From contig DASYUH010000013.1 in the NCBI GenBank assembly GCA_036001465.1, positions 92,554 through 156,553 of the forward strand: DNA of 64,000 bases, read 5' to 3'. The notes under the pieces were generated by a model. The model did not search any database, had not been told where the DNA came from, and was given only the letters and a program-made list of their open reading frames with translations. The translations under genes and the position numbers were made by a program. Positions 12,171 to 31,668 of the stretch are shown here, piece by piece. Each line of letters starts with the position of its first letter. The first letter of the stretch is position 1. The stretch comes from Candidatus Polarisedimenticolia bacterium. Its GTDB lineage: Bacteria; Acidobacteriota; Polarisedimenticolia; Gp22-AA2.

Positions 12171-12902
12171 ATGAACCTGCTTCGCCTGGCGCTCATTGTC
12201 CTGTACACCTTCGTGATCGGAACGATCACGATTGTCCTCTGTGTTCTGGTCCCTGGGGGTTCGACTCTGAGGCCGCTGGCGCGCCTCTGGTCCTGGCTGG
12301 TGCTGCGGACCTGCCGGGTGCGCTCCCGGGCCATCTACCATCCGCACCTGGATCCTGCCCGACCGAGCATTTACATCGCGAACCACCAGAGCCAGTTCGA
12401 CATCCCCGCGCTCGCACTGGCCATGAAATCCGATTTCCGGATGGTCTCCAAGCGAGAGCTCCTTTACGTGCCCGTTTTCGGTTGGGCTCTCTGGTTCGCG
12501 GGATTCGTCTTCATCGACCGCACCAACCGCGCCAAGGCGATCCAGAGCCTGGATCGGACGGCACGCATGATTCGCAAGGGAACCTCGGTCGTCGTGTTCG
12601 CAGAGGGCACGCGCAGCCCCGACCGCCGGCTCCTCCCCTTCAAGAAGGGAGGGTTCATCCTCGCGTTGCAGGCCGGCGTGCCGATCGTCCCCGTCTCCAT
12701 CCGAGGTGGACACGACGTCCTGCCCAAGGGCAGTCTGCGGATCCGGCCCGGCACCATCGAGGTAGTGTTCGGCGAACCGGTTCCGACCTCCTCCTATTCC
12801 CTGGAGACCAAGGACGATCTGATCGCCGCAGTGCGGGAGCGGATCACGGCGGGACTCGCTCAGACGCCGGACCTGTTCCGCGTCTCCACATCTGCTATTT
12901 GA
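12171..12902 (+). CDS. plsC: 1-acyl-sn-glycerol-3-phosphate acyltransferase family (PlsC/LPLAT)
   Basis: N-terminal TM helix, then HxxxxD catalytic motif (ANHQSQFD), FAEGTRS and PIVPVSI motifs. ATG at 12171 (MNLLRLALIVLY). Confidence 0.75.
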   Translation: MNLLRLALIVLYTFVIGTITIVLCVLVPGGSTLRPLARLWSWLVLRTCRVRSRAIYHPHLDPARPSIYIANHQSQFDIPALALAMKSDFRMVSKRELLYVPVFGWALWFAGFVFIDRTNRAKAIQSLDRTARMIRKGTSVVVFAEGTRSPDRRLLPFKKGGFILALQAGVPIVPVSIRGGHDVLPKGSLRIRPGTIEVVFGEPVPTSSYSLETKDDLIAAVRERITAGLAQTPDLFRVSTSAI

Positions 12903-14814
12903 TGTCGTGCAGCGAATCCTGGCGGCCCAGATCCCCATCCATGAACATACGGAACCACAGCTCGAGCCAGAGGAGCGCCCACAATTTCGAGGACTGGTCC
13001 TCGCCAGCCATGTGGCGAGCGATGAGGCTCCGCACCTCCGACCGATGGAAGTAGCCGCGACTCTCGAAACGCGGGTGCGTGAGCAGCACTTCGAGCGGCT
13101 TTCTCAGGGGTCCGCGCAGCCACGACGCCAGCGGGATGCCGAAGCCCTGTTTGGGGCGGTAGACGACCGAGGGAGGGACCAGTCGCGCGGCCAGGGTCTT
13201 GAGAAGATGCTTCCCCTGCAGCCATTTGAATTTCATCGAGGACGGCAGCGCGGCGGCGAACTCCAGGATGCGGAAATCGAGCAGCGGCGAACGGGTCTCG
13301 AGCGAGTTCGCCATCGACGCGATATCCATTTTCACCAGTAGATCGTCGGGAAGATAGGTCTGGATCACCACCTGCAGCCCCCTGTCCACCTCGTCCGCTC
13401 CATCGGTGCCGAGGTACACCTCATGGCAGTACTCGGCCGGATCGAGGCTGGTCAGCTGCGAACGGAAGGAGGGAAGGTAAAGCCTCTCCAAGTCTAACCT
13501 TTTATACCCCGGCCAGATCCAGAAGAGGTCGGCGGCCGAGCGCTCGGCCCACTCCGGCAGCAGGCCCACCAGGGTCAGGAGCCGGCCGTGGGCCCCCGGC
13601 ACCCGCTTCAATGCGCTCCCGAGAGACTTCAGGGCGGCGCGGCTCAAGCGTCGGCCCGCCAGACGGCGGCACCACTCGATCGTTCGAATCGCGCGGTTCC
13701 AGGGGTAGCCTGCGAAGGGCTCGTCGCCCCCGTCGCCATTCAAGGCGACCTTGACGTGCTTGCGGGCCGCTTCCGACACGTAGTAGCTCGGAACCGCGCT
13801 TGAATCGGCGAAGGGCTCCCCGTAATGCCACACCAGCCTGGGAAGGATGGCCGCGGCGTCCGCCTCGACGCGGATTTCAGTGTGCTCCGTGTGCAGCGCC
13901 TCCGCGACAGCCCGTGCATGGGGCAGCTCGTTGTGGCTCTCTTCGGCGAACCCGACCGAGAACGTCCGCACGGCGCCACCGGCCCGGCTCATCATGGCGA
14001 CGACCGTGCTCGAATCAACTCCGCCGCTGAGGAATGCCCCCAGAGGCACGTCGCCGATGAGGCGCAGCCGGGTCGCGTTCTCGAGGAGTTCATCGAGCCG
14101 CTCGACCGCCTCTTCCTGGGTGCAACGGATTTTTTCTCGAAACGACAGCTTCCAGTAGGAATCGGTGCGCGCTCCTGTCCGCGTGCAGGTCATGACGCTT
14201 CCGGGCGGCACCTTGCGCACGCCCGCGTAGATGGACATGTCACCGGGAACGCACAGGTAGCCGAGGTAGGAGTTCAGGGCGGCCTGGTCGACCGGTGGGA
14301 TGCTCTTCAGTCCCCGGACCAGCGCCCGCACCTCGGAGGCAAAGACGACTTCACCGTCTCCGTCCCGGTAGAAGAGCGGCTTCTTGCCGACCCGGTCCCG
14401 GGCCAGGTAGAGCGTCTGCCGCGGCGCGTCCCACAGGGCGATGGCGAACATGCCGTTGAGGCGCCTGACCACGTCGATCCCCCAGTGCATGTATCCCTGC
14501 AGGATGACCTCGGTATCGCTCTGGGTGAGGAAGCGCCGCCCCTGCGACTCCAGATCGGATCGCAGCTCCCGATAGTTGTAGATCTCGCCGTTGAAAACGA
14601 TCCGGGCGGATCCGTCCTCCGGCCCCATGGGCTGATTCGCCGTGGGGGAAAGATCGATGATGGCGAGACGGTTGAAGGCCAGACCGATGTGCGGCGACGT
14701 GTGCAGGCCTTGGTCATCCGGACCTCGGTGCGCCTGGTCGTCCCTCATCCGCAGGAGACGATTGACCTGGATCGGCGAGTCTCCCCGACTGAAGATCCCA
14801 GCGATGCCGCACAT
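12895..14814 (-). CDS. Asparagine-synthase-family glutamine amidotransferase, paralog 1
   Basis: 639 aa. Starts MCGIAG (Cys2 Ntn nucleophile). Class-II GATase motifs RGPDD, RLAIIDL, GEIYN. Synthetase-domain PP-loop SGGVDSS. 19 nt downstream of the large OM protein gene on the same strand. Confidence 0.85.
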   Translation of the reverse strand: MCGIAGIFSRGDSPIQVNRLLRMRDDQAHRGPDDQGLHTSPHIGLAFNRLAIIDLSPTANQPMGPEDGSARIVFNGEIYNYRELRSDLESQGRRFLTQSDTEVILQGYMHWGIDVVRRLNGMFAIALWDAPRQTLYLARDRVGKKPLFYRDGDGEVVFASEVRALVRGLKSIPPVDQAALNSYLGYLCVPGDMSIYAGVRKVPPGSVMTCTRTGARTDSYWKLSFREKIRCTQEEAVERLDELLENATRLRLIGDVPLGAFLSGGVDSSTVVAMMSRAGGAVRTFSVGFAEESHNELPHARAVAEALHTEHTEIRVEADAAAILPRLVWHYGEPFADSSAVPSYYVSEAARKHVKVALNGDGGDEPFAGYPWNRAIRTIEWCRRLAGRRLSRAALKSLGSALKRVPGAHGRLLTLVGLLPEWAERSAADLFWIWPGYKRLDLERLYLPSFRSQLTSLDPAEYCHEVYLGTDGADEVDRGLQVVIQTYLPDDLLVKMDIASMANSLETRSPLLDFRILEFAAALPSSMKFKWLQGKHLLKTLAARLVPPSVVYRPKQGFGIPLASWLRGPLRKPLEVLLTHPRFESRGYFHRSEVRSLIARHMAGEDQSSKLWALLWLELWFRMFMDGDLGRQDSLHDIK

Positions 14815-14833
14815 GGATCGGTCCTTTACTTCA

Positions 14834-17800
14834 TCAAAAGTATTTCAACAGACCGATCTGGAACTCGGTCCCACCCTTGAGGGGCTCGAAATCTGATTGC
14901 AGGGCCACCCCGACGTCGAACTGCAGGACCGTCTCCCAGGGCCCCATCATGTTGCCCGAGATCCCGAGCCCGGTGAACGAGTGGTAGTCGTCCGAGGTCA
15001 GGACGTCGCGGACCCGGGCCCTGTCGAGGGAGGCGTCGAAGCGGACGACGTTGGCGATGTTGAAGGCGTACTGCGCCCGGACGATCCCTCCGCGGTCGTA
15101 GCGCACGCCCGACCCGGAGAAGCCGCGCACCCGGGTCCCGAAGAACGAAAACTGGAACTCGCTGAACCGGTCCAGGCGCGATCCCGTCTGCCACATCGCC
15201 TCGAACCGCAGCTTCTGGAACAAGGGAAGAAAAACCTGCTTCGCCACGCTGAACTCGTAGGTCTCGTAGTCATTCTGGGCGGCGTCGAAATCCGACAGGC
15301 ACGATCCGGGGGACGGACAGGGCAGGGTCTCATCGCCCCATGCCCCCCATCGGCTGCGGAAGCTCTTCTGGCCGGACGCGACCACGCTCCATGCCGCGCG
15401 ATTGAATTCCCACTGGATTCCCGGCGACTGGATGAACGTGTCCCGGGGCACGACGAACGTCTCGGAGTCAACGTCGCGGCTGTAGTTGACATAGTCCAGT
15501 CCGTAGGTCGCCTTCAATCGCATGAAGCTCCCGAGCGAAGCGCCCAGCGATCCGGACAGGCTCTGGGACCGCGCGTCGACGTTGCTTTCTGCAAGCTCCT
15601 TGCCCTGGACGAAGAGCTGGTCGGTCAGGTTCACGGCCAGCGTCACCACCTGCGCGGTGGCGTCCAGCCGCTTCCCGAAGAGGTGCGGGTCGGTGTAGGA
15701 GAACAGGTTGATCACTCCGCCCAGGAGCGCGGTCGTCTGCACGTTCCGGCCGCCCACGTCGTAGTTGAAGTACCCGGCTCCCAGGAGCGGCAGGACCGGG
15801 TAGTCGAGTCCGGGCTGGCGATAGAGGCCGGCGAGGCCCAGCAGCGCGGATTTCCTGGTCTGTTCCTTCACCTGGCGCTCCCCGCTCTCGGTGCGCTCGA
15901 GGTACCTGAGTCCTTCGCGGGTGTCGCGCAGCATCTGGCGATCGGAGCGGTAGGCCTCCTCCCTCGCCTGCGCGAACCCGGCGTCGTTGATCGACACGTT
16001 CTTGAAGTCGATCTCCCGCGACAGGACCAGGGCCTGGCCCGCCACCGAGAGGATCTGCTGCCCTTCCACCCGAGTCAGGAGCCAGTAGGTCGAGCCGTCC
16101 GGCCCTGCGTGCGGCCTGTAGAAATCGACCTCCTCGTTGGAGGTCAGGGGCGGCGAAAGCTTCGTCTGGACGGTGGACGTCTTCACCGGCGCGAACGTCC
16201 GGGTCTCGATCCAGGCCCGTCCTTCGTACAGGTTCCTGCTGCGATCGATCGGCTTGAACTCGAGGACATGGCAGTCGAACCCGCCCACCTTGTCCTCGCT
16301 GACGTACTCGTAGACGTAGTCCTTGTTCAGGTTGATGTCGAGGGGCAGGGTGAACACCTTCTCGGGCTGCGGGATCGGCAGCTCCGGCAGCTTCTTCCCT
16401 TTCCAGCGGACGCCGTTGTAGTACAGGGCGCGCTGCTCCCACTCGGCCCCCGTCGCCGGATCCCAGAAGAAGGCGTTGTCGAAGCTGACGTCGATGGTGT
16501 TGCTGCCCGCGACCTTCCCGTGGTAGGTCAGGATGGCGTCGGCCCGGTAGTTCTTCAGCCTGAACCTCTGGTCGGCCATGAAGGCCTGGTGGCCGGTGAT
16601 GACCTCCTCGGCGGTGATGAGCCCCTTCCCCTCAATGTGCAGCTGCTCCTTCTCCGCCTCGAACCCCTTGATCGCCACCCGGGAGTACTGCAGGACGAGC
16701 GGGCGGGCGTACAGGGGGACGGGGACGCGGGTCGTGTTGCTCTTGAAGTCCGGCTCGACGGCCCCTCCCGGCGGGCCGGCCGCCCCCCCGATGATGTCGT
16801 AGATCGCCGCGCCCCGTACCGCGGCGGTTGGAATCACCACCCTCGCGCCCCGCTCGGGCAGCGGACCGCGGGCGAAGAAGCCGACAAGCCCCTGGTAGGC
16901 CCCGGCGTCGAAGAACGCATAGGACGTGATCCCTTCGATCCGCCGGCCCGCCCCCTCGCCGGTCGCCTCGAACGCCAGGGCGCCGCTCACCGGCGCGTAG
17001 GTCGGCAGAAACAGCTTGTGCAGGTCCAGGAGCACGCCGGGGAATTCCGGCTGCCCGTTCACGTCGGTCTCGAGATCGAAGCTGACCACCGCCGCCCCCT
17101 CCCCCTGGGCCGTGATGAACCGGCCGAGGAGATCGGAGGCCCGTTCGCGATCGGTGACTCCCTCCGCCGCCACGCGGACCGCCCAGAGCTGGGCCGAGGG
17201 GTCCTGATCCAGGAGCAGCGCCGAGGCCTTGGCTATCGCGCGCTCGATCGGGAGGCCGGCTGGCGGGCGCACCGGCAGGACATCGACGTACGTTGCGATC
17301 CCCTGGTCGTAGAGGGCCTTTTGCCAGTCCAAGTCGGCCTCCAGAGACTCGGCTCCGAGGTCGAGGGCTCCCTGGGCGATCCGGCCCTCGGGGTCCGCGG
17401 ACCGGATGACCACCGAGGTGTTCTTGAGCACGTAGGCGAAGTCCATCACCCCGGCGGCCGCCCATCCCTGCTCCCGGTTGGGCGCGTCCGCGATCTCGTA
17501 GTAGCGCACCCGGCCCTTGAAGTGCAGCGCTGCCGCGCGGGTGAACCCGAGCCAGGCCTTCAGGACGGCCGGCCGGCCGGGAGAAGGCATCGAACCACCC
17601 GGGTCGATGGCGGGGTTGGGCCCGTACAGGCATAGCGTCACGACGAAGTGCGCCGCCCGATAGGGATCGACGATCCGGTCCACCTCGCTCCAGTCGTACG
17701 TCCCCTCGCCCGGTTCCAGAAGGGACCACGGGGCGCGGATACGGACGTAGAGCGGATGGTCCGGGGCGATGGACGGATCCAGGACGGGATCCGGCAGCAG

Positions 17801-17965
17801 GAATTCTTCGCGTCCCGACCCCAGGTCGTATTCGTAGCCGAGACCGAGAGTGGGCGGCCGGGGCGCCGCCCCGCCTGCCGGCGCCGCCGGGGCAAATGTC
17901 GGAACCGCGATCGTCAGAAGCAGCCAGCCGGCCGCATCGCGGACGCTCCGGAGCGCTCGTCGCAT
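14834..17965 (-). CDS. Large secreted/outer-membrane protein with an N-terminal glycosyl-hydrolase-like TIM-barrel domain, a LolA-like middle domain and a C-terminal beta-barrel
   Basis: 1043 aa. Signal peptide MRRALRSVRDAAGWLLLTIAVPTFAPA. N-terminal region WSLLEPGEGTYDWSEVDRIV...RYYEIADAPN resembles the GH5/GH39-type (W..EP..G.YDW ... YEI.NEPN) pattern, but with DAP in place of NEP. Middle region DKVGGFDCHVLEFKPIDRS...STYWLLTRVEG is LolA-like. C-terminal about 400 aa show alternating hydrophobic beta-strand periodicity, ending LLKYF with a terminal aromatic. Confidence 0.65.
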   Translation of the reverse strand: MRRALRSVRDAAGWLLLTIAVPTFAPAAPAGGAAPRPPTLGLGYEYDLGSGREEFLLPDPVLDPSIAPDHPLYVRIRAPWSLLEPGEGTYDWSEVDRIVDPYRAAHFVVTLCLYGPNPAIDPGGSMPSPGRPAVLKAWLGFTRAAALHFKGRVRYYEIADAPNREQGWAAAGVMDFAYVLKNTSVVIRSADPEGRIAQGALDLGAESLEADLDWQKALYDQGIATYVDVLPVRPPAGLPIERAIAKASALLLDQDPSAQLWAVRVAAEGVTDRERASDLLGRFITAQGEGAAVVSFDLETDVNGQPEFPGVLLDLHKLFLPTYAPVSGALAFEATGEGAGRRIEGITSYAFFDAGAYQGLVGFFARGPLPERGARVVIPTAAVRGAAIYDIIGGAAGPPGGAVEPDFKSNTTRVPVPLYARPLVLQYSRVAIKGFEAEKEQLHIEGKGLITAEEVITGHQAFMADQRFRLKNYRADAILTYHGKVAGSNTIDVSFDNAFFWDPATGAEWEQRALYYNGVRWKGKKLPELPIPQPEKVFTLPLDINLNKDYVYEYVSEDKVGGFDCHVLEFKPIDRSRNLYEGRAWIETRTFAPVKTSTVQTKLSPPLTSNEEVDFYRPHAGPDGSTYWLLTRVEGQQILSVAGQALVLSREIDFKNVSINDAGFAQAREEAYRSDRQMLRDTREGLRYLERTESGERQVKEQTRKSALLGLAGLYRQPGLDYPVLPLLGAGYFNYDVGGRNVQTTALLGGVINLFSYTDPHLFGKRLDATAQVVTLAVNLTDQLFVQGKELAESNVDARSQSLSGSLGASLGSFMRLKATYGLDYVNYSRDVDSETFVVPRDTFIQSPGIQWEFNRAAWSVVASGQKSFRSRWGAWGDETLPCPSPGSCLSDFDAAQNDYETYEFSVAKQVFLPLFQKLRFEAMWQTGSRLDRFSEFQFSFFGTRVRGFSGSGVRYDRGGIVRAQYAFNIANVVRFDASLDRARVRDVLTSDDYHSFTGLGISGNMMGPWETVLQFDVGVALQSDFEPLKGGTEFQIGLLKYF

Positions 17966-18095
17966 GGACGAGGGACGTTATCAGACAGACCGGTGGCAGT
18001 CAAACCACGGTGTCGTCCCGCAGCCAGCCATCCGTGCTATGGTATACGCCCCCGTCGAGGGCGCGAGGCGCAAGGGATTCAACGAGATCGACCGG

Positions 18096-19289
18096 ATGAG
18101 AATCGCAGCCGAATTGCTGATCGCGGGCTCGGTCCGCACGCCTCTGGGAAAGTTCGGTGGCGCCCTGGCGTCGCTCAGCGCCCCGGAGCTGGGGGCCGCG
18201 GCCTCGCGCGCCGCTCTCGAGCGGGCCGGTATCCGGCCGGACGATGTCCAGGAGACCATCATGGGGAACGCCCGGCCGGCGGGCACCGGACCGAATCCCG
18301 CCCGCCAGATCGCCCACAGGGCCGGGATTCCGGACAGCGCCCCCGCCTACACGGTCAACATGGCCTGCGGCTCCTCGCTCCGCGCCATCCTGAACGCCTG
18401 CCAGAGCATCGCGGCCGGCGACCGCGAGGTCGTGCTGGTCGGGGGGGCCGAGTCGATGAGCCGCGTCCCCTACCTGCTGGAGGGGGCCCGCTTCGGGTAC
18501 AAGATGGGCCACCAGCGCCTCACCGACGCCATGTACCGGGACGGATTTCTCTGCCCCCTGTGCGACCAGGTCATGGGGGAGACCGCCGAAACGCTGGCGG
18601 AACGCTACGAGATTTCCCGCGTCGAGCAGGATGCCTTCGCCGCGGAGTCCCAGCAGCGCTGCGAGCGGGCCAGGACATCGGGTAGCTTCACCGCTGAAAT
18701 CGTCCCGTTGACGGTCGCGGGACCCAAGGGCTCCGCCCTGGTTTCCGAGGACGAGCACCCTCGGGACGGCGTGACCGCCGAATCCCTCGCAAGCCTGCCG
18801 CCGGTGTTCAGGAAGAACGGGACGGTCCACGCCGGCTCGTCCTCCGGGCTGGTCGACGGCGCTTCGGCGATGGTCCTGCTGTCCTCCGACGCCGCCCGCC
18901 GGCTCGGGGTGCAGCCCCAGGCCCGCGTGGTGGCCTACTCCACGGCGGGCGTCGATCCCGCGGTCATGGGGATCGGGCCCGTTCCGGCGGTCCGGGATCT
19001 CCTGCGCCGAACGGGTCTCACCCTCGAGGAGATTGACCTGATCGAGATCAACGAGGCGTTCGCCGCACAGGTCCTGGCGTGCCAGCGCGATCTCCGGTTC
19101 GATCTGTCACGCACCAACGTCAACGGCGGGGCCATCGCCCTCGGACACCCGATCGGCGCGACCGGGGCCCGCATCACGACCACCCTGATCCACGAGATGC
19201 TGCGGCGCAAGGCCCGCCGGGGCCTGGCCACCCTGTGCATCAGCGGCGGTCTGGGGATCGCGCTCCTCGTCGAGCCGGTTTCCTCGTGA
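18096..19289 (+). CDS. Acetyl-CoA C-acetyltransferase (thiolase II family)
   Basis: VRTPLGKFGG and NMACGSSL (active-site Cys). C-terminal motifs NGGAIALGHPIGATGARI and CISGGLGIALLV. ATG at 18096. Confidence 0.85.
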   Translation: MRIAAELLIAGSVRTPLGKFGGALASLSAPELGAAASRAALERAGIRPDDVQETIMGNARPAGTGPNPARQIAHRAGIPDSAPAYTVNMACGSSLRAILNACQSIAAGDREVVLVGGAESMSRVPYLLEGARFGYKMGHQRLTDAMYRDGFLCPLCDQVMGETAETLAERYEISRVEQDAFAAESQQRCERARTSGSFTAEIVPLTVAGPKGSALVSEDEHPRDGVTAESLASLPPVFRKNGTVHAGSSSGLVDGASAMVLLSSDAARRLGVQPQARVVAYSTAGVDPAVMGIGPVPAVRDLLRRTGLTLEEIDLIEINEAFAAQVLACQRDLRFDLSRTNVNGGAIALGHPIGATGARITTTLIHEMLRRKARRGLATLCISGGLGIALLVEPVSS

Positions 19290-19296
19290 CGCCGGC

Positions 19297-20469
19297 ATGA
19301 AGCGCCCTTACCAGGCTCTCGACTTCTTCGCGGTGGACGCCCTCCTGAGCGACGAGGAGCTCATGGTCCGCGATACCGCGCGGGCGTTCGTCACCGACAG
19401 GGTGCTCCCCATCATCGAGGCGCACTTCCGCGACGGCACGTTCCCGTCCGAGCTCGTGCCTGAGATGGCGTCGATGGGCCTGCTCGGCGCCAACCTCGAA
19501 GGGTACGGCTGCGCCGGGCTCAACAGCGTCGCCTACGGCCTGATCATGCAGGAGCTGGAGCGCGGCGACAGCGGGATCCGGTCGTTCGTCTCGGTGCAGG
19601 GCGCGCTGTGCATGTATCCGATCCACGCGTTCGGCTCGCCCGAGCAGAAGGAGCGCTGGATCCCGGCCATGGCGAAGGGAAAGGCCGTCGGCTGCTTCGG
19701 CCTGACCGAGCCGGACGCCGGCAGCGACCCGGCGAGCCTCCGGACGCGGGCGGCCAGGAAGGGCGGGCGCTACGTTCTCAACGGCGCGAAGGCCTGGATC
19801 ACCAACGGATCGATCGCCGATGTCGCGGTGGTCTGGGCCCGTTGCGAGGACGGCGTGATCCGCGGCTTCCTGGTGGAGCGCGGAACCGCGGGTTTCTCCG
19901 CCCGGGATCACGGGGGCAAGTTCTCGCTGCGGGCGTCGGTCACCTCCGAGCTCATCCTTCAGGATTGCGAGGTTCCGGCCGCGGCGCTGCTTCCGGGGAC
20001 CGGGGGATTGAGATCACCGCTGATGTGCCTCAGCCAGGCGCGGTATGGCATTGCGTGGGGCGGCATCGGTTCGGCGCAGGCCGTGTTCGATGAGGCCCTG
20101 GGCTACGCAAAAGCCCGCATCGCCTTCGGCAAGCCGATCGCCGCGTTTCAGATCCAGCAGGAGAAGCTCGTCTGGATGGCCAGCGAGATCACCAAGGCGC
20201 AGATCCTGGCCCTGCGCCTGGGACGGCTCAAGGATGAAGGCAAGGCGACCCCGGCGCAGATCTCCATGGGCAAGCGGAACAACATCTGGGTGGCGCGGGA
20301 GTGCGCCCGACTGGCCCGGGAGATCCTGGGCGCCAACGGGATCACCGATGAATACCAGGTGGGGCGCCACCTGTGCAACATCGAGTCGGTCTACACTTAC
20401 GAGGGAACGCACGACATTCATACCCTCATCCTGGGCGAGGCCCTGACGGGACTCTCCGCGTTTTCCTGA
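19297..20469 (+). CDS. Acyl-CoA dehydrogenase, glutaryl-CoA dehydrogenase-like
   Basis: 390 aa. CFGLTEPDAGSD, YVLNGAKAWITNG, and C-terminal YTYEGTHDIHTLILGEALTG typical of the GCDH subfamily. 7 nt after the thiolase stop. Confidence 0.85.
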   Translation: MKRPYQALDFFAVDALLSDEELMVRDTARAFVTDRVLPIIEAHFRDGTFPSELVPEMASMGLLGANLEGYGCAGLNSVAYGLIMQELERGDSGIRSFVSVQGALCMYPIHAFGSPEQKERWIPAMAKGKAVGCFGLTEPDAGSDPASLRTRAARKGGRYVLNGAKAWITNGSIADVAVVWARCEDGVIRGFLVERGTAGFSARDHGGKFSLRASVTSELILQDCEVPAAALLPGTGGLRSPLMCLSQARYGIAWGGIGSAQAVFDEALGYAKARIAFGKPIAAFQIQQEKLVWMASEITKAQILALRLGRLKDEGKATPAQISMGKRNNIWVARECARLAREILGANGITDEYQVGRHLCNIESVYTYEGTHDIHTLILGEALTGLSAFS

Positions 20470-20514: not shown

Positions 20515-21654
20515 ATGGTGAACCCGGCCCCGAGCGCCGTTCCGGGAATGAACCCGCCGTCCGAGCGGGCGTCTCCGGACTCGCTCCCGCGCCTCTGCTT
20601 CATCGGGCCCCTGATGGCGGAGCGTCATTCCGGGTACGTGGTGACCCAGGGCGTGGTCCTGTCGGGTCGCTTCCGAAGCGCCGGCTACCCGGTTGTGACC
20701 GCCTCGGCGTCCCCCAACCGGTATCTCCGGCTCCTCGACGTCGCCCGCACGATCGTCCAGCGCCGAGGGGCCATCGACATCCTGATCGTCCATGTTTACA
20801 GCGGCCCGAGCTTCGTCGTGGAGGACGTCGCAAGCTGGCTCGGCCGGCGCTTCGGCCTGCGGATCATCCTGCTGCTCCACGGGGGCGCCATGCCGGAGTT
20901 CATGGCGAAATTTCCGGACTGGACGCGCCGGGTCCTCGGCCGCGCCGACGCCATCGTCGCCCCCTCCCCGTTTCTCGCCCGATCCGCGGCCGCGCACGGC
21001 TTCGAGTGCCAGGTCATCCCGAACCTCATCGACTTGAATCGCTACCCCCATCGACGGCGCGGCACGCTCGAGCCCCGCCTCTTCTGGATGCGCTCCTTCC
21101 ACCCCGTGTACAACCCTATCCTGGCGGTCCGCGTGCTGGAACGCCTGCGGGCCACGCATCCGCGCGCCACTCTGGTCATGGGGGGACCGGACAAGGGGAT
21201 GCAGTCCGAGGTCCAGGCGCTCGCGCGGCGAATCGGTCTGGGGGACGCGGTGCGGTTTCCGGGCTTCCTGGACATGGCGGGCAAGGCGCGGGAGGGCCAG
21301 GCGGCCGATGTTTTCATCAACACGAGCCGCGTCGACAACATGCCCGTGTGCGTCGTCGAGGCCGCCGCCATGGGGATCCCCGTGGTGAGCACGGCCGTGG
21401 GAGGCGTCACGGACCTGGTGCAGGACGGGGAGACGGCGCTGCTCGTCCCCGACGACGACGTCGAGGCGATGGCGGGGTCGATCCAGCGCCTGCTGCGCGA
21501 TCCGGATCTGGCCGGCCGGCTGTCCGAGAAGGGTCGCAGGCTCGCCGAGCGATCCGCCTGGGAGCAGGTCCATCCCCTCTGGGAGGCGCTTTTCGCCCGC
21601 CTGCAGTCCCACCCCTCTCCCACCCCGCGCCGAGGCACCGATGTGCGGCATTAG
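20515..21654 (+). CDS. Glycosyltransferase family 4 (GT-B, retaining)
   Basis: N-terminal domain RLCFIGP. C-terminal domain VRFPGFLD...ADVFINTSRVDNMPVCVVEAAAMGIPVVST (E-x7-E-like). 45 nt after the dehydrogenase. 3' end overlaps the next AsnB paralog by 14 nt. Confidence 0.8.
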   Translation: MVNPAPSAVPGMNPPSERASPDSLPRLCFIGPLMAERHSGYVVTQGVVLSGRFRSAGYPVVTASASPNRYLRLLDVARTIVQRRGAIDILIVHVYSGPSFVVEDVASWLGRRFGLRIILLLHGGAMPEFMAKFPDWTRRVLGRADAIVAPSPFLARSAAAHGFECQVIPNLIDLNRYPHRRRGTLEPRLFWMRSFHPVYNPILAVRVLERLRATHPRATLVMGGPDKGMQSEVQALARRIGLGDAVRFPGFLDMAGKAREGQAADVFINTSRVDNMPVCVVEAAAMGIPVVSTAVGGVTDLVQDGETALLVPDDDVEAMAGSIQRLLRDPDLAGRLSEKGRRLAERSAWEQVHPLWEALFARLQSHPSPTPRRGTDVRH

Positions 21655-23482
21655 CGGCGTCGGCGGGTCGCGCGCGGTCGCCGAGATGGAACTCGTCGCG
21701 ATGCGCGATTCCCTGGCCCACCGCGGACCGGACGATGCCGCCCATGTCATGTCGCCCGGGGTGGCCCTGGCATCCCGGCGGCTCGCGATTCTCGATCTCT
21801 CGAGCCGCGGACGGATGCCGATGTCCACGCCGGACGGCCGGTACTGCATCACGTACAACGGCGCGGTCTACAACTTCCGGGAGCTGCGCTCCTTTCTGGA
21901 GGGGCGCGGCCATACGTTCCGGACCCAGACCGACACCGAAGTGATCCTCCAGCTGTATGCGGAGGAGGGCCCCGCCATGCTGGGGCGGCTGAACGGCATG
22001 TTCGCCCTGGCCATCTGGGATGCCCGCGAGCGTTCGCTGTTCCTCGCCCGTGATCGGCTGGGCGTGAAGCCCCTCTTCTACGCGGAGCACGACGGGCGGC
22101 TGTACTTTGCCTCCGAGCAGAAGGCGCTGTTCGCCGCCGGCGTTCCGATCCGTTTCGACCCCGCTGCATGGGAGGAGCTCCTGTGCTTCCGCTACGTCAG
22201 CGGCACGAAGACCCCCTACTCCGGGGTCGAGAAACTCCTCCCCGGCCATTACATGATCTGGAAGGACGGGCACACCGCGATTCATCGCTGGTGGATCCTC
22301 GCCGATCGCGCCCGCTCTCTCAGGGATTCCCTCCCCGCCGACCCCGTCCGCTGGTACCGAGAGACCCTCGACAGCGCCGTGGACCTGCGATGCATCAGCG
22401 ATGTTCCGGTCGGCGTCCTCTTGAGCGGCGGACTGGACTCTTCGAGCATCGCCTCATCTCTGGCGCAGCACGAGCGCTCGGGCCTCGCCAGCTTCACCGT
22501 CCGCTTCTCGGAATCAGGATACGACGAGGGACCCCTGGCGCGAGAGGTCGCGTCGCGCTTCGGGCTGGAGTACAACGAGACGACGGTCGGCACCGACCTC
22601 CTGGTCGACAGGATCCTGGAGGCTTCCCATCTCAACGACGAGCCCCTGGCGCACGACAGCGACCTGCACCTCCTCGCCATCTCGAGGTATGCCAGGCCGC
22701 GGGTCACGGTGCTGCTCTCAGGGGAAGGAGCGGATGAGACGCTCGGCGGCTACGTCCGCTACCGGCCGCTTCGCAGCCCCCAGCTGCTGGCGGTCGCGCG
22801 GCCCGTCTATCCCGCCGCCGCCATGCTGTTCGGGGCGGGCGGGAGGCTGCGCAAGCTCGCGCGCTTCCTCGACCTGGGGGGGCTGCGCTCGTACATCCTG
22901 TACAACGCCTGCAATGTCCTGCCGTGCGACCTGCGCGCGCTGGGGATGACGCCGACCTGCGACTTTCCCTACCGTCAGGCCGTTCTCGAGGAGGCGGAGA
23001 CTCTCTACCCCACGGAACCGGTCCGGCAGGCGATGTACGCCGACCAGCACACGTTCCTCTGCTCGGTCCTCGATCGAAACGATCGGATGACCATGGGAGC
23101 CTCGATCGAGTGTCGCGTCCCCTTTCTCGACTACCGCCTCGTGGAAGCCCTCGCGGCCATGCCATCCTCCGTTCTGGGCCCGGGGCGGCGCGGCAAGCCC
23201 CTCCTGCAGCGCTCCATGAGCGACCGGCTGCCTCCCGCCGTTCGTCACAACAGGAAATGGGGCTTCGGGGTACCCTGGGGCTCCTACCTGAGAGACTGTC
23301 CACCGCTGCGCGGCCTGGTCCAGGATCTTCCGGACCTCGAGCCGATCCGGAGCGGACCGCTCGATCGCGGCCGGCTGGCGACGGCGATCCGGGAGTTCCT
23401 CGCCGGGGACGAGGCCCACGTGGCGCTGGTGCGGCAACTCGTGATGATCGCGGCCTGGCACCGTGCGTGCGTCAAGTCCTGA
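21641..23482 (+). CDS. Asparagine-synthase-family glutamine amidotransferase, paralog 2
   Basis: 613 aa. MCGISG start, RGPDD, RLAILDL, GAVYNF, PP-loop SGGLDSS. Confidence 0.85.
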   Translation: MCGISGVGGSRAVAEMELVAMRDSLAHRGPDDAAHVMSPGVALASRRLAILDLSSRGRMPMSTPDGRYCITYNGAVYNFRELRSFLEGRGHTFRTQTDTEVILQLYAEEGPAMLGRLNGMFALAIWDARERSLFLARDRLGVKPLFYAEHDGRLYFASEQKALFAAGVPIRFDPAAWEELLCFRYVSGTKTPYSGVEKLLPGHYMIWKDGHTAIHRWWILADRARSLRDSLPADPVRWYRETLDSAVDLRCISDVPVGVLLSGGLDSSSIASSLAQHERSGLASFTVRFSESGYDEGPLAREVASRFGLEYNETTVGTDLLVDRILEASHLNDEPLAHDSDLHLLAISRYARPRVTVLLSGEGADETLGGYVRYRPLRSPQLLAVARPVYPAAAMLFGAGGRLRKLARFLDLGGLRSYILYNACNVLPCDLRALGMTPTCDFPYRQAVLEEAETLYPTEPVRQAMYADQHTFLCSVLDRNDRMTMGASIECRVPFLDYRLVEALAAMPSSVLGPGRRGKPLLQRSMSDRLPPAVRHNRKWGFGVPWGSYLRDCPPLRGLVQDLPDLEPIRSGPLDRGRLATAIREFLAGDEAHVALVRQLVMIAAWHRACVKS

Positions 23483-23490
23483 CCCAAGGC

Positions 23491-25419
23491 CTACCACCCG
23501 AGCTTCCGGTCCCGCAGCCAGAGCTCCAGGGCGAGGAGCATGAGCACCCTCTGGTAGAGCCCGCCCCGGCTGATCGTGCCCACCCTGCGCCCCGCTCCCG
23601 CCGCGCGAAACCACTCCAGCCAGCGGTCCACCAGAGCGCCGCTCAGGAACCCCCGGATCCGCGCGCCGCCCGACCGGAGCAGATCGTCGAGCATGGCGTG
23701 GAACGCGGGACCGACCATGCGATCGAGAGGGATGGAGAAGCCCTGCTTCCGGTGCTCCGCCACCTTCCGGGGAAGCCAGCGCCTGGCCAGGGCGCGAAGC
23801 ACGAGTTTGCCCTCGCGCCCGTCCGTCTTCAGTCGATGCGGGAGCCGGAGCCCGCAGCGGACGACCTCCTCATCCAGCATCGGCACCCGCACCTCGATGC
23901 TGGCGCGCATGCTCATCATGTCGACCTTGCGCAACATGTCCCCCGGGAGGCTCGCGGCGAAGATGGCCTCCGTCAGCCGCCGCGACAGGGGCTCGAGGTC
24001 CATGACCCCGGCCGGATCGTACGGTCCGAACATGCGGTCGACCGGCAAGAGCCCCGCCCGCGCGTCGGGCAGGACCAGCTCCTCCTTCTGGGATTCGCTC
24101 AGATAGCTGTAGAACCTTGCGAACAGACGGGCGGTGCTCTCCCCTCCCGTCCCGGCCAGCCGGACGATCTTGGCGGCCTGCCTTCCCAGATCGGCCGTCC
24201 ACGGCTCGAGAAGGTCCCCTCCCCGTGCCAGGAGTTCGCGGAGCGGACCCGGAAGGCGGCTCAGCCGGTGGAGGAGATTGAGCCGCCAGAAGGATGCATA
24301 CCCCCCGAAGCCCTCGTCGCCCCCGTCGCCGGACACCGTGCAGATGATCCCGTTGTCACGGATTGCGCGGCTCACGGCGTAGGTGGGCAGGAGGCTGGAG
24401 TCGGCAAACGGCTGATCGAAGTGCCGCAGCAGGTCGTTCACTGAATCGGGAGCGAGCACGCGGTCGTCCACCTCGATCGAGCGATGCCGGGTTCCGTAGT
24501 GGCTCGCCACGGCGAGCGCCATCTCGGTCTCGTCGTACCCGGATTCCGGAAAGCGGACGTTGAACGTCGAGGGGGTCCCGGAGGTCGTCCGGCAGAGCGC
24601 GGCCACCACCAGGGACGAGTCGATGCCGCCGCTCAGGAGCGCGGCCACGGGCACATCGGCGCGCGATTGCTCCGCCGCGGCGCGCAGGAGAGCCGCCTCT
24701 GCGGCGTCGACCGCCTCCTCCAGGGTCAGGCCGTCCTCCGGCTCGGGATGGACGGTATGGAATCTCTTCGGGATCCGCCCCTTGCAGTCGACGAGGAGAG
24801 TGGTGCCGGTGGGCAGCATCTCGATCCCGAGGAAGCCGGTCGCCGGCTCCGGCACGTATCCGAGCGCCAGGAAGTCGTAGCAGGCCTGGCGATCCACGCC
24901 CGCCTCGATCACCGCCGACGTGAGGATCGCCTTGATCTCGCTGGCGAAGACGAGATGGTCGCCCCGCACCGCGTAGTAGAGCGGCTTGATGCCGAAGCGA
25001 TCGCGCCCCAGAAGGAGCGACCGCCTGTTCCGGTCGTAGATGGCGAAGGCGAACATGCCCCGCAGCCGCCCGGCGAGGGCGGCGCCTTCCTCCTCGTACA
25101 GATGGGCGAGGACTTCGGTATCCGAGGTCCCTCGAAACCTGTGACCCCGTTGCTGCAGCTCCCGCCGGAGCTCGGGATGGTTGTAGATCTCCCCGTTGAA
25201 CACCACCTGGACGCTGCCATCCTCGTTGGGCATGGGCTGATTGCCGGTCGGCGTCAGATCGATGATGGCCAGGCGCCGAAACACGAGCTCGCAGGTGCCG
25301 TCGTGGAAGTGCCCGCCTCCGTCGGGTCCGCGGTGCTGCAGGAGAGCGTCGGCATGGACCCGCCAGGCGGGATCGGGAGGCAGTTGGTTCGGGTGAAAAC
25401 GGCCGGCAATCCCGCACAT
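23491..25419 (-). CDS. Asparagine-synthase-family glutamine amidotransferase, paralog 3
   Basis: Start trimmed to the ATG at 25419 so the product begins MCGIAG (the ORF track begins 17 codons earlier). RGPDG, RLAIIDL, GEIYNH, PP-loop SGGIDSS. Convergent with paralog 2, 8 nt apart. Confidence 0.85.
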   Translation of the reverse strand: MCGIAGRFHPNQLPPDPAWRVHADALLQHRGPDGGGHFHDGTCELVFRRLAIIDLTPTGNQPMPNEDGSVQVVFNGEIYNHPELRRELQQRGHRFRGTSDTEVLAHLYEEEGAALAGRLRGMFAFAIYDRNRRSLLLGRDRFGIKPLYYAVRGDHLVFASEIKAILTSAVIEAGVDRQACYDFLALGYVPEPATGFLGIEMLPTGTTLLVDCKGRIPKRFHTVHPEPEDGLTLEEAVDAAEAALLRAAAEQSRADVPVAALLSGGIDSSLVVAALCRTTSGTPSTFNVRFPESGYDETEMALAVASHYGTRHRSIEVDDRVLAPDSVNDLLRHFDQPFADSSLLPTYAVSRAIRDNGIICTVSGDGGDEGFGGYASFWRLNLLHRLSRLPGPLRELLARGGDLLEPWTADLGRQAAKIVRLAGTGGESTARLFARFYSYLSESQKEELVLPDARAGLLPVDRMFGPYDPAGVMDLEPLSRRLTEAIFAASLPGDMLRKVDMMSMRASIEVRVPMLDEEVVRCGLRLPHRLKTDGREGKLVLRALARRWLPRKVAEHRKQGFSIPLDRMVGPAFHAMLDDLLRSGGARIRGFLSGALVDRWLEWFRAAGAGRRVGTISRGGLYQRVLMLLALELWLRDRKLGW

Positions 25420-25674
25420 GGGTTGCGGCACAGTACGCCATGGTGCATCCAAATGCAATGGCGAATGCACGACGACCGTATGGATTTGGCGGTGCGCCAG
25501 GCACCGTAATCCGCGGGTCTAGCGCCCTGCGCTCCGCCCTCACGGTCTCGGCGGTGCGCGTTCTCAACATGCTGCTGTATCTCGTGTTCGCTCTCGGTGA
25601 CTTACTTCGGGACGAGCGTGCAGCGCGCGAGCATTTTATTGAGACACCTCGATCGGCACCCTTGAAATTCGGCT

Positions 25675-26355: not shown

Positions 26356-26386
26356 AAGAACGTTCGCGGGACGGGCATCCGTTACG

Positions 26387-27470: not shown

Positions 27471-29447
27471 ATGTGCGGCATTTTCGGAATTGTGGGAGAC
27501 CCGGTGCCTGCCGGGATCGATCGAGCCTGCGACGCCATGCGCCACCGCGGCCCCGACGACCGGGGCACCTACCTCGACGCCGGCGCCGGGCTGGGAATGA
27601 CCCGGCTGGCGATCCTCGACCTGTCCCGGGCCGGCCACCAGCCGATGGGCACCGAAGACGACTCCCTGTGGATCGTCCACAACGGCGAGGTCTACAACTT
27701 CGGGGAGGAGCGACGCCGGCTGGAGGCGAAGGGTCTACGATTCCGATCACACACGGACACCGAGGTGATCCTGCGCCTGTACGAAGAGCTGGGCCCGGCG
27801 TGCATCGATCGCCTGCGGGGGATGTTCGCTTTCGCGGTCTGGGATGCCCGGAATCGGCGCCTGTTTGCGGCACGGGACCGCCTGGGCATCAAGCCCCTTT
27901 ATTATGCGTGGGACAGCCACCGGCTCGTCTTCGCTTCCGAGCTGAAGGCCCTGCTGGCCAGTGGCCTGGTGGAGGGCCGCCTCTCCATGGAGGGGCTGGC
28001 GCTGTACCTGACCTTTGGCTACGTCCCCTCACCCTGCACGCTGATCGAAGGGGTGCAGGCGCTGCAGCCCGGGCATCACCTGACCCTGGAGAAGGGGCGC
28101 TTGACGGTGAGGCGCTACTGGGATCTGCCGACGGGCAGCGATCGGCACGCCTCGCGGTCGGCAGACGAGAGGGAGGCTGCCGCGGAACTCCGCGCCCTCC
28201 TGACGGAGAGCGTCCGCCTCCGGCTGATCAGCGACGTGCCGATTGGCGCCTTCTTGAGCGGGGGGATCGACTCGGCGGCCGTGGTCGCCCTCATGGCCGA
28301 GGCCCGCTCGGGGCCGGTCAAGACTTTCTCCATCGGCTTCGATGCCGACGGGAAAACCCTGGACGAGACCGACGACGCGGGCTTTCTCGCCAAGCACCTG
28401 GGAACCGACCACACGCGGCGCATCGTGACGGGCCGCGAGGTCGCCGACCTCGTCGATCGTCTCGGCCGGGCCCTCGACCAGCCGTCATTCGATGGAATCA
28501 ACAGCTATATCGTGTCGCAAGTGGCACGCACTGGCGTGACCGTGGCCCTGACGGGACTCGGAGGAGACGAGCTGTTCGCGGGCTACCCTCATTTCTGGCG
28601 TCTCCATTGGGAATACCGGAATGGAGGATGGCCGCACACGATCCAGAGGTCGATCAAGACGGCCCTCGCGGGGGCAGGCACCTTGATCCAGCCCTGGTTT
28701 CGGGGGACGCCTCTGGATCGGTATGCGGACTGGGCCCGCGTGCAGCACGGTTTCGTCACCCGCTACGGTCTATCTCACACCCTTTTCCCGCCGGCGCAAC
28801 AGCACGCCCTCTGCACCCCCGGATTGGCCGCATCGGCCCCGATCGGGCGGCTTGCCTCCGACTACCTGGGAGCCCTCGACGACCCGCGCGCCCATGATCT
28901 GATCGCGCGCGTCAGCCGCCTCGACCTCAAGGGGTACATGGCGCACCGGCTGCTGAGAGACATGGATGCCATGAGCATGGCCCACTCCCTCGAGGTGAGG
29001 GTGCCTCTCATCGACCATCGGCTCGTCGAGTTCGCCTACGCCCTGCCGGCTTCCTACAAGTATCAACCCGGGAGCGCCGCCCCGCCCGGCGGCGAACGGG
29101 AGGCCAGCTATCGTCAGTTGGGGGCGAAGAGGATTCTCATCGATTCGGTTCGGGATCTGCTGCCAGTCGGCTACGAGGACCGCCCCAAGACCGGATTCCA
29201 CCTTCCCATGGCCTCCTGGATGAAGAGCGACCTCCGACCCGCCGTGGACGACCTGCTGAGCCGGGAGTCCGTGCGGCGGCGAGGGCTGTTCCGCCCGGAG
29301 GCCGTTGCGCGGCTTTTGGCGGGGTTCCATGGAGGCGCGGTTCCGTGGCACCAGGTCTGGGCGCTCGCGGCGCTCGAGTTGTGGCAGCGCCAGGTTCTTT
29401 ACTCGGGCGCCGCCGCCCCGGCGGGCGACCAGCGGGCGACCGCGTGA
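27471..29447 (+). CDS. Asparagine-synthase-family glutamine amidotransferase, paralog 4
   Basis: Start set at the ATG at 27471 so the product begins MCGIFG. RGPDD, RLAILDL, GEVYNF, PP-loop SGGIDSA. Its TGA overlaps the GTG of the downstream GT4 (GTGA). Confidence 0.85.
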   Translation: MCGIFGIVGDPVPAGIDRACDAMRHRGPDDRGTYLDAGAGLGMTRLAILDLSRAGHQPMGTEDDSLWIVHNGEVYNFGEERRRLEAKGLRFRSHTDTEVILRLYEELGPACIDRLRGMFAFAVWDARNRRLFAARDRLGIKPLYYAWDSHRLVFASELKALLASGLVEGRLSMEGLALYLTFGYVPSPCTLIEGVQALQPGHHLTLEKGRLTVRRYWDLPTGSDRHASRSADEREAAAELRALLTESVRLRLISDVPIGAFLSGGIDSAAVVALMAEARSGPVKTFSIGFDADGKTLDETDDAGFLAKHLGTDHTRRIVTGREVADLVDRLGRALDQPSFDGINSYIVSQVARTGVTVALTGLGGDELFAGYPHFWRLHWEYRNGGWPHTIQRSIKTALAGAGTLIQPWFRGTPLDRYADWARVQHGFVTRYGLSHTLFPPAQQHALCTPGLAASAPIGRLASDYLGALDDPRAHDLIARVSRLDLKGYMAHRLLRDMDAMSMAHSLEVRVPLIDHRLVEFAYALPASYKYQPGSAAPPGGEREASYRQLGAKRILIDSVRDLLPVGYEDRPKTGFHLPMASWMKSDLRPAVDDLLSRESVRRRGLFRPEAVARLLAGFHGGAVPWHQVWALAALELWQRQVLYSGAAAPAGDQRATA

Positions 29448-31656: not shown

Positions 31657-31668
31657 GAGCGTCCGGTC

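Follow-up and report, generated by a model that had tools for sequence, protein, structure and literature searches.

Four AsnB-superfamily amidotransferase genes from four subfamilies in a glycan-assembly island of a Polarisedimenticolia bacterium

A 64,000-nucleotide stretch of contig DASYUH010000013.1 from Candidatus Polarisedimenticolia bacterium (Acidobacteriota; assembly GCA_036001465.1, positions 92,554 to 156,553 of the forward strand), hereafter the window, contains four genes of the AsnB superfamily within 17 kb of a glycan-assembly region. We propose that these four diverged genes encode enzymes for glutamine-dependent amidation of glycan carboxylates, by analogy with WbpS, and place the probability of this reading at about 0.6. 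Each enzyme would adenylate the carboxylate of a glycan building block, and ammonia channelled from glutamine would displace adenosine monophosphate (AMP) to give a primary amide. The likeliest acceptors would be uronic acids supplied by two nucleotide-sugar 6-dehydrogenases and by epimerases encoded beside the island, into which the paralogs appear to have been assembled as modules. That the four are glycan amidotransferases and not housekeeping enzymes we consider likely, while the proposal that uronic acids are the acceptors in this genome falls just short of an even chance. We infer the acceptor, the stage at which it is modified (nucleotide sugar or lipid-linked) and the activity itself.

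RESULTS

Four AsnB-superfamily genes with conserved catalytic residues

The original prediction of four AsnB-fold genes that preserve Cys2 is borne out by open reading frame (ORF) translation, tblastn and the TIGR01536 model (Table 1). The translated N-termini follow the pattern MCGI(A/S/A/F)G, in the order of paralogs 1-4. The ORF of paralog 3 remains open in the 5' direction to a GTG at 25470; we took the ATG at 25419 as its start because an N-terminal nucleophile-type amidotransferase requires Cys directly after Met. An R-L-A-I-(I/L)-D-L motif and a PP-loop (SGGVDSS, SGGLDSS, SGGIDSS and SGGIDSA in paralogs 1-4) had been predicted for every copy and are found in all four, whereas the RGPDD motif predicted alongside them reads RGPDG in paralog 3.

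We aligned E. coli AsnB (asnB from NC_000913; its numbering is used throughout) with the four paralogs and 39 orthologs. Common to all groups are Cys1, the segment His29-Arg-Gly-Pro-Asp33, Arg49, Leu50, Asn74, Gly75, Asp98 and the PP-loop, together with the equivalents of Gly347, Asp351, Glu352, Tyr357, Lys429 and Lys449. The SGGxDS PP-loop and the equivalents of Lys429 and Lys449 are invariant in the four paralogs and in 43 aligned relatives. Because all four paralogs keep the glutaminase nucleophile, the nitrogen donor would be glutamine-derived ammonia and the products primary amides rather than amino-acid conjugates; the amino-acid linkage once entertained for this locus is therefore unlikely. 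Each paralog also has an insertion of ~100 residues after the SGxGxDE..GGY block and lacks the TTIR segment of the E. coli enzyme. In the region of Asp384 and Arg387, MAFFT and gapless alternative alignments disagree on which residues are equivalent.

All four proteins match TIGR01536 over their full length (406-452 bits, cut-off 267). This is a broad model that covers non-asparagine enzymes too, and it is the only one passed; the curated cut-off of a specific family is reached by none of the four. Against NF006949, which represents E. coli-type AsnB, they score 244-274 bits for a cut-off of 499, in agreement with the earlier view that they are not enzymes of that type. Of the NCBIfam models, TIGR03108 gives paralogs 1, 3 and 4 their highest scores; against it paralogs 1-4 reach 562.6, 391.8, 413.2 and 460.0 bits, paralog 1 lying nearest to the cut-off of 816.9 and all four falling below it. 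Scores are likewise below the cut-offs of TIGR03104 (N-acetylglutaminylglutamine amidotransferase; 315-418 bits against 570.1), the lasso-peptide cyclase model NF033535 (180-231 against 525) and NF033561 (46-77 against 300). The proteins are annotated by NCBI as 'asparagine synthase (glutamine-hydrolyzing)', and identical proteins are present on the Joint Genome Institute (JGI) contig Ga0376049_0000604. Motifs and family scores support the assignment of the four genes to the AsnB superfamily as putative Cys2-bearing, PP-loop amidotransferases distinct from E. coli-type AsnB, each with a predicted N-terminal glutaminase domain followed by an ATP-pyrophosphatase domain that carries the PP-loop.

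A tblastn search of the window with the four proteins returned exactly four AsnB-like genes, 34-37% identical to one another (36-40% by MAFFT), and neither a fifth copy nor a pseudogene remnant in the 64 kb. The copy number was compared with that of 58 loci of at least 15 kb, each centred on an AsnB-like gene. One copy is present in 40 of these loci, two in 13, three in a single locus and four in none; the remaining 4 of the 58 registered zero copies at the 400-aa alignment threshold. Four copies are unusual and place this locus at the extreme of its relatives. In a neighbour-joining tree (76 sequences, 608 columns, 50 bootstraps, rooted on E. coli AsnB), clade support is 100 for paralog 2, 100 for paralog 3, 98 for paralog 4 and 82-92 for paralog 1, which belongs to an Asp-348 clade. 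Because they fall in four separate clades, the paralogs appear to be non-redundant members of four old subfamilies gathered together, and not products of local duplication. Identity to orthologs ranges over 45-88% across the four, against 34-40% between the paralogs themselves.

The closest solved structure by sequence is TsnB9 (7ylz; E = 4e-71 to paralog 1), followed by E. coli AsnB, human ASNS and beta-lactam synthetase. Paralog 4, the sole paralog for which a model was built, was predicted with AlphaFold2 from a 54-sequence alignment (mean predicted local distance difference test score, pLDDT, 88.9; predicted template-modelling score, pTM, 0.91). Foldseek matched the model to 7ylz with E = 1e-33 and to E. 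coli AsnB (1ct9) with E = 3e-27. Target-normalised TM-scores are 0.83 for TsnB9, 0.77-0.80 for 1ct9, 0.74-0.77 for human ASNS and 0.69-0.73 for the beta-lactam and carbapenam synthetases. The two-domain AsnB fold is thus predicted to be present in paralog 4, and the label 'AsnB fold' is correct.

Uronic acid supply beside the island

The nearest known parallels are WbpS of P. aeruginosa O6, WbqG of E. coli O121, PGN_1234 and H. pullorum WbpS, where, as here, an AsnB-family gene lies in a glycan locus with a nucleoside diphosphate (NDP)-sugar 6-dehydrogenase and an epimerase. Enzymes of the WbpS/WbqG/PGN_1234 type convert N-acetylhexosaminuronic acid (HexNAcA) or glucuronic acid (GlcA)-type residues to amides in a residue-specific manner, as judged from genetic evidence (PMC7468200, PMC6025236). 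PGN_1234 in P. gingivalis has been linked genetically to a uronamide (PMC7468200), and an H. pullorum wbpS mutant carries HexNAcA in place of the amide HexNAcAN (PMC6025236). On P. aeruginosa O6 and E. coli O121, both papers refer to King et al. 2010.

The glycan region of our contig reaches well past the left edge of the window. In that direction lie, in order: the 421-aa dehydrogenase whose first codons enter the window, a short-chain dehydrogenase/reductase (SDR) epimerase, a 441-aa Ugd/TuaD-like dehydrogenase, a TviC-like SDR 4-epimerase, a family 2 glycosyltransferase (GT2), ManC and Wzy_C. These positions are given by locus L068, whose coordinates equal window coordinates + 6633, so that L068 2190-6677 corresponds to window -4443 to 44. 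The 421-aa enzyme is closest to dehydrogenases of uridine diphosphate (UDP)-ManNAc and UDP-GlcNAc (WecC/TviB-like), the 441-aa enzyme scores 554 bits as a Ugd/TuaD-like UDP-glucose dehydrogenase, and the TviC-like uronate 4-epimerase scores 262 bits. Acting with the epimerases, the two dehydrogenases would therefore provide two or more kinds of uronic acid next to the island, an arrangement that follows the WbpO/WbpP/WbpS paradigm.

Paralogs 2 and 3 share one cassette

A search with paralog 2 in one genome per species yielded 61 loci with relatives, mostly 45-68% identical. The hosts span at least eight phyla and include Acidobacteriota (several classes), Gemmatimonadota, Verrucomicrobiota, Planctomycetota, Chloroflexota, Bacteroidota/Ignavibacteria, Bdellovibrionota and a 'delta proteobacterium' metagenome-assembled genome. 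We mapped the window proteins onto the paralog-2-type loci and clustered all of their ORFs. Of the 48 loci with enough upstream sequence, 33 have an ortholog of the family 4 glycosyltransferase (GT4) gene GT4_a (44-64% identity) directly upstream of paralog 2 on the same strand, its end lying no more than 400 bp from the paralog 2 start. A CapK/PaaK-like adenylating enzyme with an FHSSGSTG motif is encoded in 45 of 56 loci and directly downstream of paralog 2 in 35. Orthologs of paralog 3 (58-61%) occur in nine loci, always within the paralog 2 cassette; the gene order is AsnB(3)-GT4_a-AsnB(2) in seven, and in the other two the CapK gene separates it from paralog 3, which is encoded on the opposite strand. 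Further members of the wider cassette are two more GT4 genes, a Wzy-like gene, GNAT, GT2, DegT aminotransferases, a PglC-like transferase and a CapD/PglF-like dehydratase. Among loci L005-L064 (for example L013 1742-13608), in at least eight phyla, it takes the form GT4-GT4-Wzy-(CapK-like ligase)-AsnB-GT4-AsnB-GNAT-GT2, with DegT, PglC-like and CapD-like genes nearby.

Of this cassette the window has the three-gene core alone, namely GT4_a and paralogs 2 and 3. Paralog 3 is inverted here, and its stop lies 8 bp from that of paralog 2. The three genes thus appear to form one module, a piece of the AsnB-GT4-AsnB(-CapK-like ligase) cassette that is so widespread elsewhere. Because its orthologs share the paralog 2 cassette, paralog 3 is not tied to a separate assembly gene. 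The suggestion that each paralog has a different partner accordingly holds for the GT4 pairings of paralogs 2 and 4 but not for paralog 3, while all of the gene junctions first read from the DNA are present: the 14-bp overlap of GT4_a with paralog 2, the convergence of paralogs 2 and 3, and the GTGA at paralog 4.

Two observations weigh against the proposed amidation. An NDP-sugar dehydrogenase lies within 10 kb in just 1 of 44 paralog-2-type loci and in 2 of 14 paralog-4-like loci, and our window is missing the CapK-like ligase that is the usual companion of paralog 2. Because dehydrogenases are rare near the related loci, the uronate link would be particular to the neighbourhood in this genome and not general to the modules. 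The acceptors, at least of paralogs 2 and 3, could instead be carboxylates of non-sugar substituents, such as amino-acid or dicarboxylic-acyl groups on an amino sugar, which would give glutaminyl-/isoglutaminyl-type or similar amide products. The frequent CapK/PaaK-like enzyme and the DegT, GNAT, PglF/CapD-like and PglC-like genes of the wider cassette fit such a substrate. Yet the CapK-like, DegT, GNAT and CapD genes are all absent from this window, where two dehydrogenases adjoin the island, and other genomes may encode their dehydrogenases elsewhere. No characterised AsnB-family enzyme of that type was found in the literature examined. A non-uronate carboxylate for paralogs 2 and 3 is a serious alternative, if on balance an unlikely one.

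Paralog 1 and the frame of the island

Orthologs of paralog 1 are 54-84% identical to it. Encoded 19 bp upstream of its start is a 1043-aa protein whose N-terminus resembles a signal sequence and which ends in Phe (...LLKYF), as outer-membrane beta-barrels typically do; it gives a weak mid-protein LolA-like/TP_0789-like Pfam match and matches no NCBIfam family. Homologs of this protein (1051 and 1098 aa) hold the same position in L065 and L150. The thiolase/acyl-CoA dehydrogenase pair occupies the same chromosomal slot in L065, L066, L067 and L150, where the glycan genes differ, and homologs of either gene are found in none of 58 paralog-2-type loci. Because they are kept beside differing glycan genes, the thiolase and the acyl-CoA dehydrogenase are residents of the slot and not partners of paralog 2. 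An N-acyl or acyl-CoA link through these two enzymes, put forward when the locus was first described, was rejected on synteny.

In the related genomes the region is framed by a common flank set: MlaE/F/D, PlsC, the ~1050-aa protein, thiolase, acyl-CoA dehydrogenase, PatA_N and CarA/B. Between these flanks lie one AsnB gene in L065, two in L066 and two in L067. The island therefore appears to behave like an O-antigen or capsule locus, with fixed flanks and a modular, exchangeable interior; it is mosaic and of the strain-variable surface-glycan type. Relatives of paralog 1 (54-67%) lie between GT4 genes in L066 and beside an AMP-ligase and a DUF3473 polysaccharide deacetylase in L067, an arrangement discussed for VimA/VimE/PGN_1234-like linking-sugar pathways (PMC7468200). 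L065 and L150 both come from assembly GCA_040961615.1, in which the thiolase-acyl-CoA dehydrogenase/PatA_N/~1050-aa flank set is present twice with differing interior glycan genes; this doubling suggests a mixed-strain bin or a duplicated region.

One of the paralogs, most plausibly paralog 1, could be a housekeeping asparagine synthetase that sits in the glycan region by chance. In many bacteria the housekeeping enzyme is a long-form (~630 aa) TIGR01536 protein, and paralog 1 has the highest TIGR01536 score of the four (451.8 bits), is acidic at position 348 with Asp351 and Glu352 in place, and has orthologs that hold the chromosomal slot even where the other glycan genes differ. A gene at 56673 had been cited as a 'real asnS' that would relieve the paralogs of this role. 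It encodes asparagine--tRNA ligase (AsnRS), which consumes asparagine. The cell therefore needs an asparagine synthetase somewhere, and the gene gives no argument against a housekeeping function. Set against this, paralog 1 scores higher with the EPS (exopolysaccharide)-type TIGR03108 than with TIGR01536 and stays far under the cut-off for E. coli-type AsnB, it follows the outer-membrane-type protein gene closely, and its relatives keep the company of GT4 genes or of the AMP-ligase and deacetylase. We regard a housekeeping role for any of the four as quite unlikely.

Residue 348 and the glutamine pocket

The residue at the position of E. coli Glu348 appears to be specific to each subfamily. 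It is Asp in paralog 1, as in 118 of its 120 best database hits; Glu in paralog 2 and in 50 of 51 orthologs; Asp in paralog 3 and in 9/9 orthologs; and Leu in paralog 4 (TGLGGDE), whose best 120 hits have 63 Leu, 48 Thr and 2 Glu. In human ASNS the corresponding Glu364 forms, with Asp367, Glu368 and Asp400, an acidic pocket for the alpha-amino group of aspartate, and the variants E364A, E364Q and D367A are inactive (PMC6748925). The glutamine pocket formed by Arg49, Asn74, Gly75, Glu76 and Asp98 is complete in paralogs 1, 3 and 4; in paralog 2 Glu76 is replaced by Ala (NGAVYN; codons 74-76 at 21860-21868).

Both substitutions had been missed when all four enzymes were described as catalytically competent, a statement that was too strong, and both count against the proposed activity. 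The Glu missing from paralog 4 is indispensable to the human and E. coli asparagine synthetases. Paralog 2 is the sole member with Ala76 among 51 orthologs, the one from L027 having Gly and the rest Glu; the Ala may be a genuine attenuating substitution or may vary within the population. In E. coli AsnB, glutamine is reportedly positioned by four side chains, of which Glu76 is one. Paralog 4, the paralog 2 of this genome, or both could then be catalytically impaired and act as ammonia-dependent or non-catalytic partners of GT4 enzymes, for example as scaffolds or substrate binders. However, Leu, Thr or Val at 348 is conserved across the paralog 4 clade, including 118 of 120 fusion proteins described below, and the clade keeps Cys2, the PP-loop, Asp351, Glu352 and both lysines, as is to be expected if the enzyme is active and its acceptor site altered. 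Beta-lactam synthetase is active with Tyr at this position, and Ala76 recurs in 4 of 29 paralog-4-like relatives. Impairment is less likely still than a housekeeping role. The clade-wide hydrophobic residue or Thr at 348, with all else intact, suggests that the acceptor site has changed rather than decayed.

Paralog 4 is paired, and elsewhere fused, with GT4 enzymes

A protein search returned paralog 4 orthologs at 77-88% (P0122-P0127) and 54-58% identity (P0128-P0129). Among the matches listed in a metagenome scan with paralog 4 peptide patterns, relatives were at most 43% identical. In the window, paralog 4 and GT4_b are joined by the GTGA overlap at 29444-29447. The ortholog in L150 (79%) similarly overlaps a 438-aa GT4 gene by 4 bp and is followed, as in the window, by GT2, FkbM and MurJ genes, and the ortholog in L151 (58%) again overlaps a GT4 gene. 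The GT2-FkbM-MurJ block (30718..37348) thus appears to travel with paralog 4 and GT4_b. The methyltransferase and the 191-aa gene upstream of paralog 4 are not conserved with the orthologs in L150 and L151, and the suggested pairing of paralog 4 with the methyltransferase is not supported.

Metagenomic ORFs of 1009-1043 aa fuse a paralog-4-like AsnB to a GT4 domain (L073 4047-7073; L123 5131-8358); in L070 (5960-9091) the fusion partner is a GT9-like domain instead of GT4. The best 120 clusters at the 90% identity level returned by the L073 fusion query (P0241-P0360, 977-1062 aa) all combine GATase, Asn_synthase and Glycos_transf_1 domains. They come mostly from Opitutaceae and other Verrucomicrobiota, some from contigs of 6.5 and 8.9 Mb, and the 118 with Leu at the Glu348 position do so with MCGI and SGGLDS. 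In the tree, the paralog 4 clade is without an acidic residue at 348 and takes in the N-domains of these AsnB::GT4 fusions. A caution applies: the GT4 domains of the fusions are only ~30% identical to GT4_a and GT4_b and were rejected as orthologs of either. For that reason the fusions represent a family-level (Rosetta-stone) coupling and not orthology.

Paralog 4 and GT4_b would then be the split form of a pairing that exists elsewhere as single AsnB::GT4 polypeptides. The split and fused forms suggest that amidation may be coupled to one particular glycosyl transfer, which would explain residue-specific amidation. We tentatively place paralog 4 in a large AsnB branch in which Glu348 has given way to Leu, Thr or Val while glutaminase and adenylation functions are kept. 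Such an enzyme could be a GT4-coupled amidotransferase that acts on the residue its glycosyltransferase has just added, or is about to add, to a lipid-linked intermediate, with a catalytic arrangement unlike that of asparagine synthetase. This more specific picture is possible, although we hold it to be doubtful.

Gene neighbourhood

The G+C content of the window is 62-72%. Neighbouring genes were scanned with Pfam and NCBIfam (Table 1), and the presence of two GT4 genes, a GT2, two GT-C genes, Wzy_C, a MurJ-like flippase and several methyltransferases supports a glycan-assembly region. The GT4 and Wzy_C neighbours match PEP-CTERM-associated models weakly; no exosortase or PEP-CTERM gene is present among the window genes scanned. 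A promoter and terminator scan of 12-31 kb gave one site of each kind, no more than expected from shuffled sequence. The remainder of the window is housekeeping in character (queA/queC/queE, EF-G, AsnRS, MiaB-like, RibF and HolB).

AsnB-family enzymes amidate meso-diaminopimelate (meso-DAP) in Corynebacterium, Lactobacillus and Bacillus, and PlsC and Mla genes lie nearby, but a target in another envelope component, whether peptidoglycan meso-DAP or D-Glu (LtsA/AsnB1-like) or a lipid head group, is very improbable here: PlsC and Mla are conserved flank genes, GT4 genes accompany three of the four paralogs from phylum to phylum, and the island has no mur or peptidoglycan genes, its MurJ-family gene sitting with GT2 and FkbM like a glycan flippase.

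Three further observations concern the surroundings. The PGA_cap (CapA-like) gene at 5887-7044 is without a PgsB/PgsC partner in the window, and homologs of it lie near paralog 2 orthologs in L055 and L059. In L065 a 570-aa gene without a family match adjoins the PatA_N gene. Past the queuosine run (48305-50730) lie genes for an AP-endonuclease-2 TIM-barrel protein and an NTP_transf_5 protein.

Table 1. Features of the window and its left edge (window coordinates; SAM, S-adenosylmethionine)
Feature	Coordinates	Strand	Remarks
NDP-sugar 6-dehydrogenase, 421 aa, first codons	1..44	-	runs on along this contig past the left edge
MlaD/F/E	142-2862	-	conserved flank genes
GT-C	3368-4810	+	variable glycan block; Pfam/NCBIfam
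Methyltransferase	4916-5902	-	variable glycan block
PGA_cap (CapA-like)	5887-7044	-	variable glycan block
PMT_2 GT-C	7341-9137	-	variable glycan block; also 154-aa ORF
Wzy_C ligase or polymerase	10154-11578	+	variable glycan block
PlsC-type acyltransferase	12090-12902
Paralog 1	12895..14814	-	639 aa; Asp-348 type AsnB-family amidotransferase
1043-aa secreted or outer-membrane-type protein	14834..17965	-	directly upstream of paralog 1
Thiolase and acyl-CoA dehydrogenase	17850..20469	+	probable thiolase start 18039; acyl-CoA dehydrogenase 19297-20469
GT4_a glycosyltransferase	20515..21654	+	3' end overlaps paralog 2 start by 14 bp
Paralog 2	21641..23482	+	613 aa; Glu-348 type; Glu76 to Ala in glutamine pocket
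Paralog 3	23491..25419	-	642 aa; Asp-348 type; RGPDG, not RGPDD
191-aa protein without Pfam/NCBIfam family	25815-26390	+	upstream of paralog 4; 4-bp overlap with methyltransferase
Class I SAM methyltransferase	26387-27313	+	upstream of paralog 4
Paralog 4	27471..29447	+	658 aa; Leu at Glu348 position
GT4_b glycosyltransferase	29444..30757	+	GTG start overlaps paralog 4 TGA stop
GT2	30718-31656	-
FkbM methyltransferase	31669-32628	-
569-aa protein without Pfam/NCBIfam family	33074-34783	-
Methyltransferase	34854-35420	-
MurJ-family flippase	35765-37348	-
DUF4388/PatA_N protein, then CarB			beyond the MurJ-family gene
Queuosine run: QueA-like (Queuosine_synth), QueC, QueE-like radical-SAM	48305-50730	-
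Asparagine--tRNA ligase (AsnRS)	56673-57995	+	NF003037 540.8 bits against 414; TIGR00457 458.5 against 342.6

DISCUSSION

The four paralogs resemble WbpS in family and in genomic context, but WbpS-type loci carry one copy, whereas this locus has four from four subfamilies. A second point of comparison is the XrtA/PEP-CTERM amidotransferase family TIGR03108, an AsnB family of EPS loci that is the best model for three of the four paralogs and whose genes are associated with exosortase EPS loci (PMC7468200); in contrast to that family, the paralogs score 392-563 bits against 816.9, and the window has no exosortase or PEP-CTERM gene. Several glutamine-dependent amidotransferase paralogs in one polysaccharide locus, as here, have been recorded before. 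The Bordetella wbm locus contains wbmC, wbmI and wbmZ (PMC2615507), and psc1 of Rubrivivax gelatinosus, which shows synteny to Thauera MZ1T and Rhodoferax, has three 'wbpS' genes interspersed with GT4 genes, a CapK gene and wzy (PMC3684757). Those loci hold three copies over larger distances and belong to other phyla, while our four lie within 17 kb. Because wbm and psc1 are already on record as multi-paralog loci, the present island is an unusually dense example of a known arrangement.

At the level of the enzyme, the paralogs resemble the bona fide asparagine synthetases E. coli AsnB and human ASNS in their predicted fold and keep Cys1, the residues of the glutamine pocket (save Glu76 in paralog 2), the PP-loop, Asp351, Glu352 and Lys449. 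They differ from E. coli AsnB in falling short of the NF006949 cut-off, in the ~100-residue insertion, in the missing TTIR segment and in position 348, which is Asp, Glu, Asp and Leu in paralogs 1-4. TsnB9, nearest by sequence and fold, is likewise a long-form member of the AsnB family, and its acceptor is not an amino acid; it differs in that it transfers hydroxylamine in secondary metabolism, shares only 26% identity and has Glu at 348. Beta-lactam and carbapenam synthetases and the lasso-peptide cyclases have the same synthetase fold and acyl-adenylate chemistry, with position 348 a known site of functional divergence, but they lack the Cys nucleophile and use an intramolecular amine, whereas all four paralogs keep Cys2.

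We found no description of the modular structure, the subfamily-specific residue 348 or the AsnB::GT4 fusions in open-access literature text, and these features, including the abundance of the fusions, are what the present analysis adds. For the organism itself, the finding means nothing beyond a known type of glycan tailoring. Amidation strips negative charge from surface polysaccharides and alters antigenicity, cation binding and phage or immune recognition. If the GT4-coupled picture of paralog 4 is true, the residue-specific uronamide patterns of P. aeruginosa O6 and of H. pullorum glycans would gain a simple structural explanation. Under the blanket annotation 'asparagine synthase', these enzymes lead metabolic reconstructions astray, in uncultured Acidobacteriota as in other soil phyla. 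Glycosyltransferase-linked modules, together with subfamily-specific acceptor-pocket residues, offer a rational way to split TIGR01536 and to choose candidates for biochemistry, with the Leu/Thr-348 clade and the AsnB::GT4 fusions as the best starting points.

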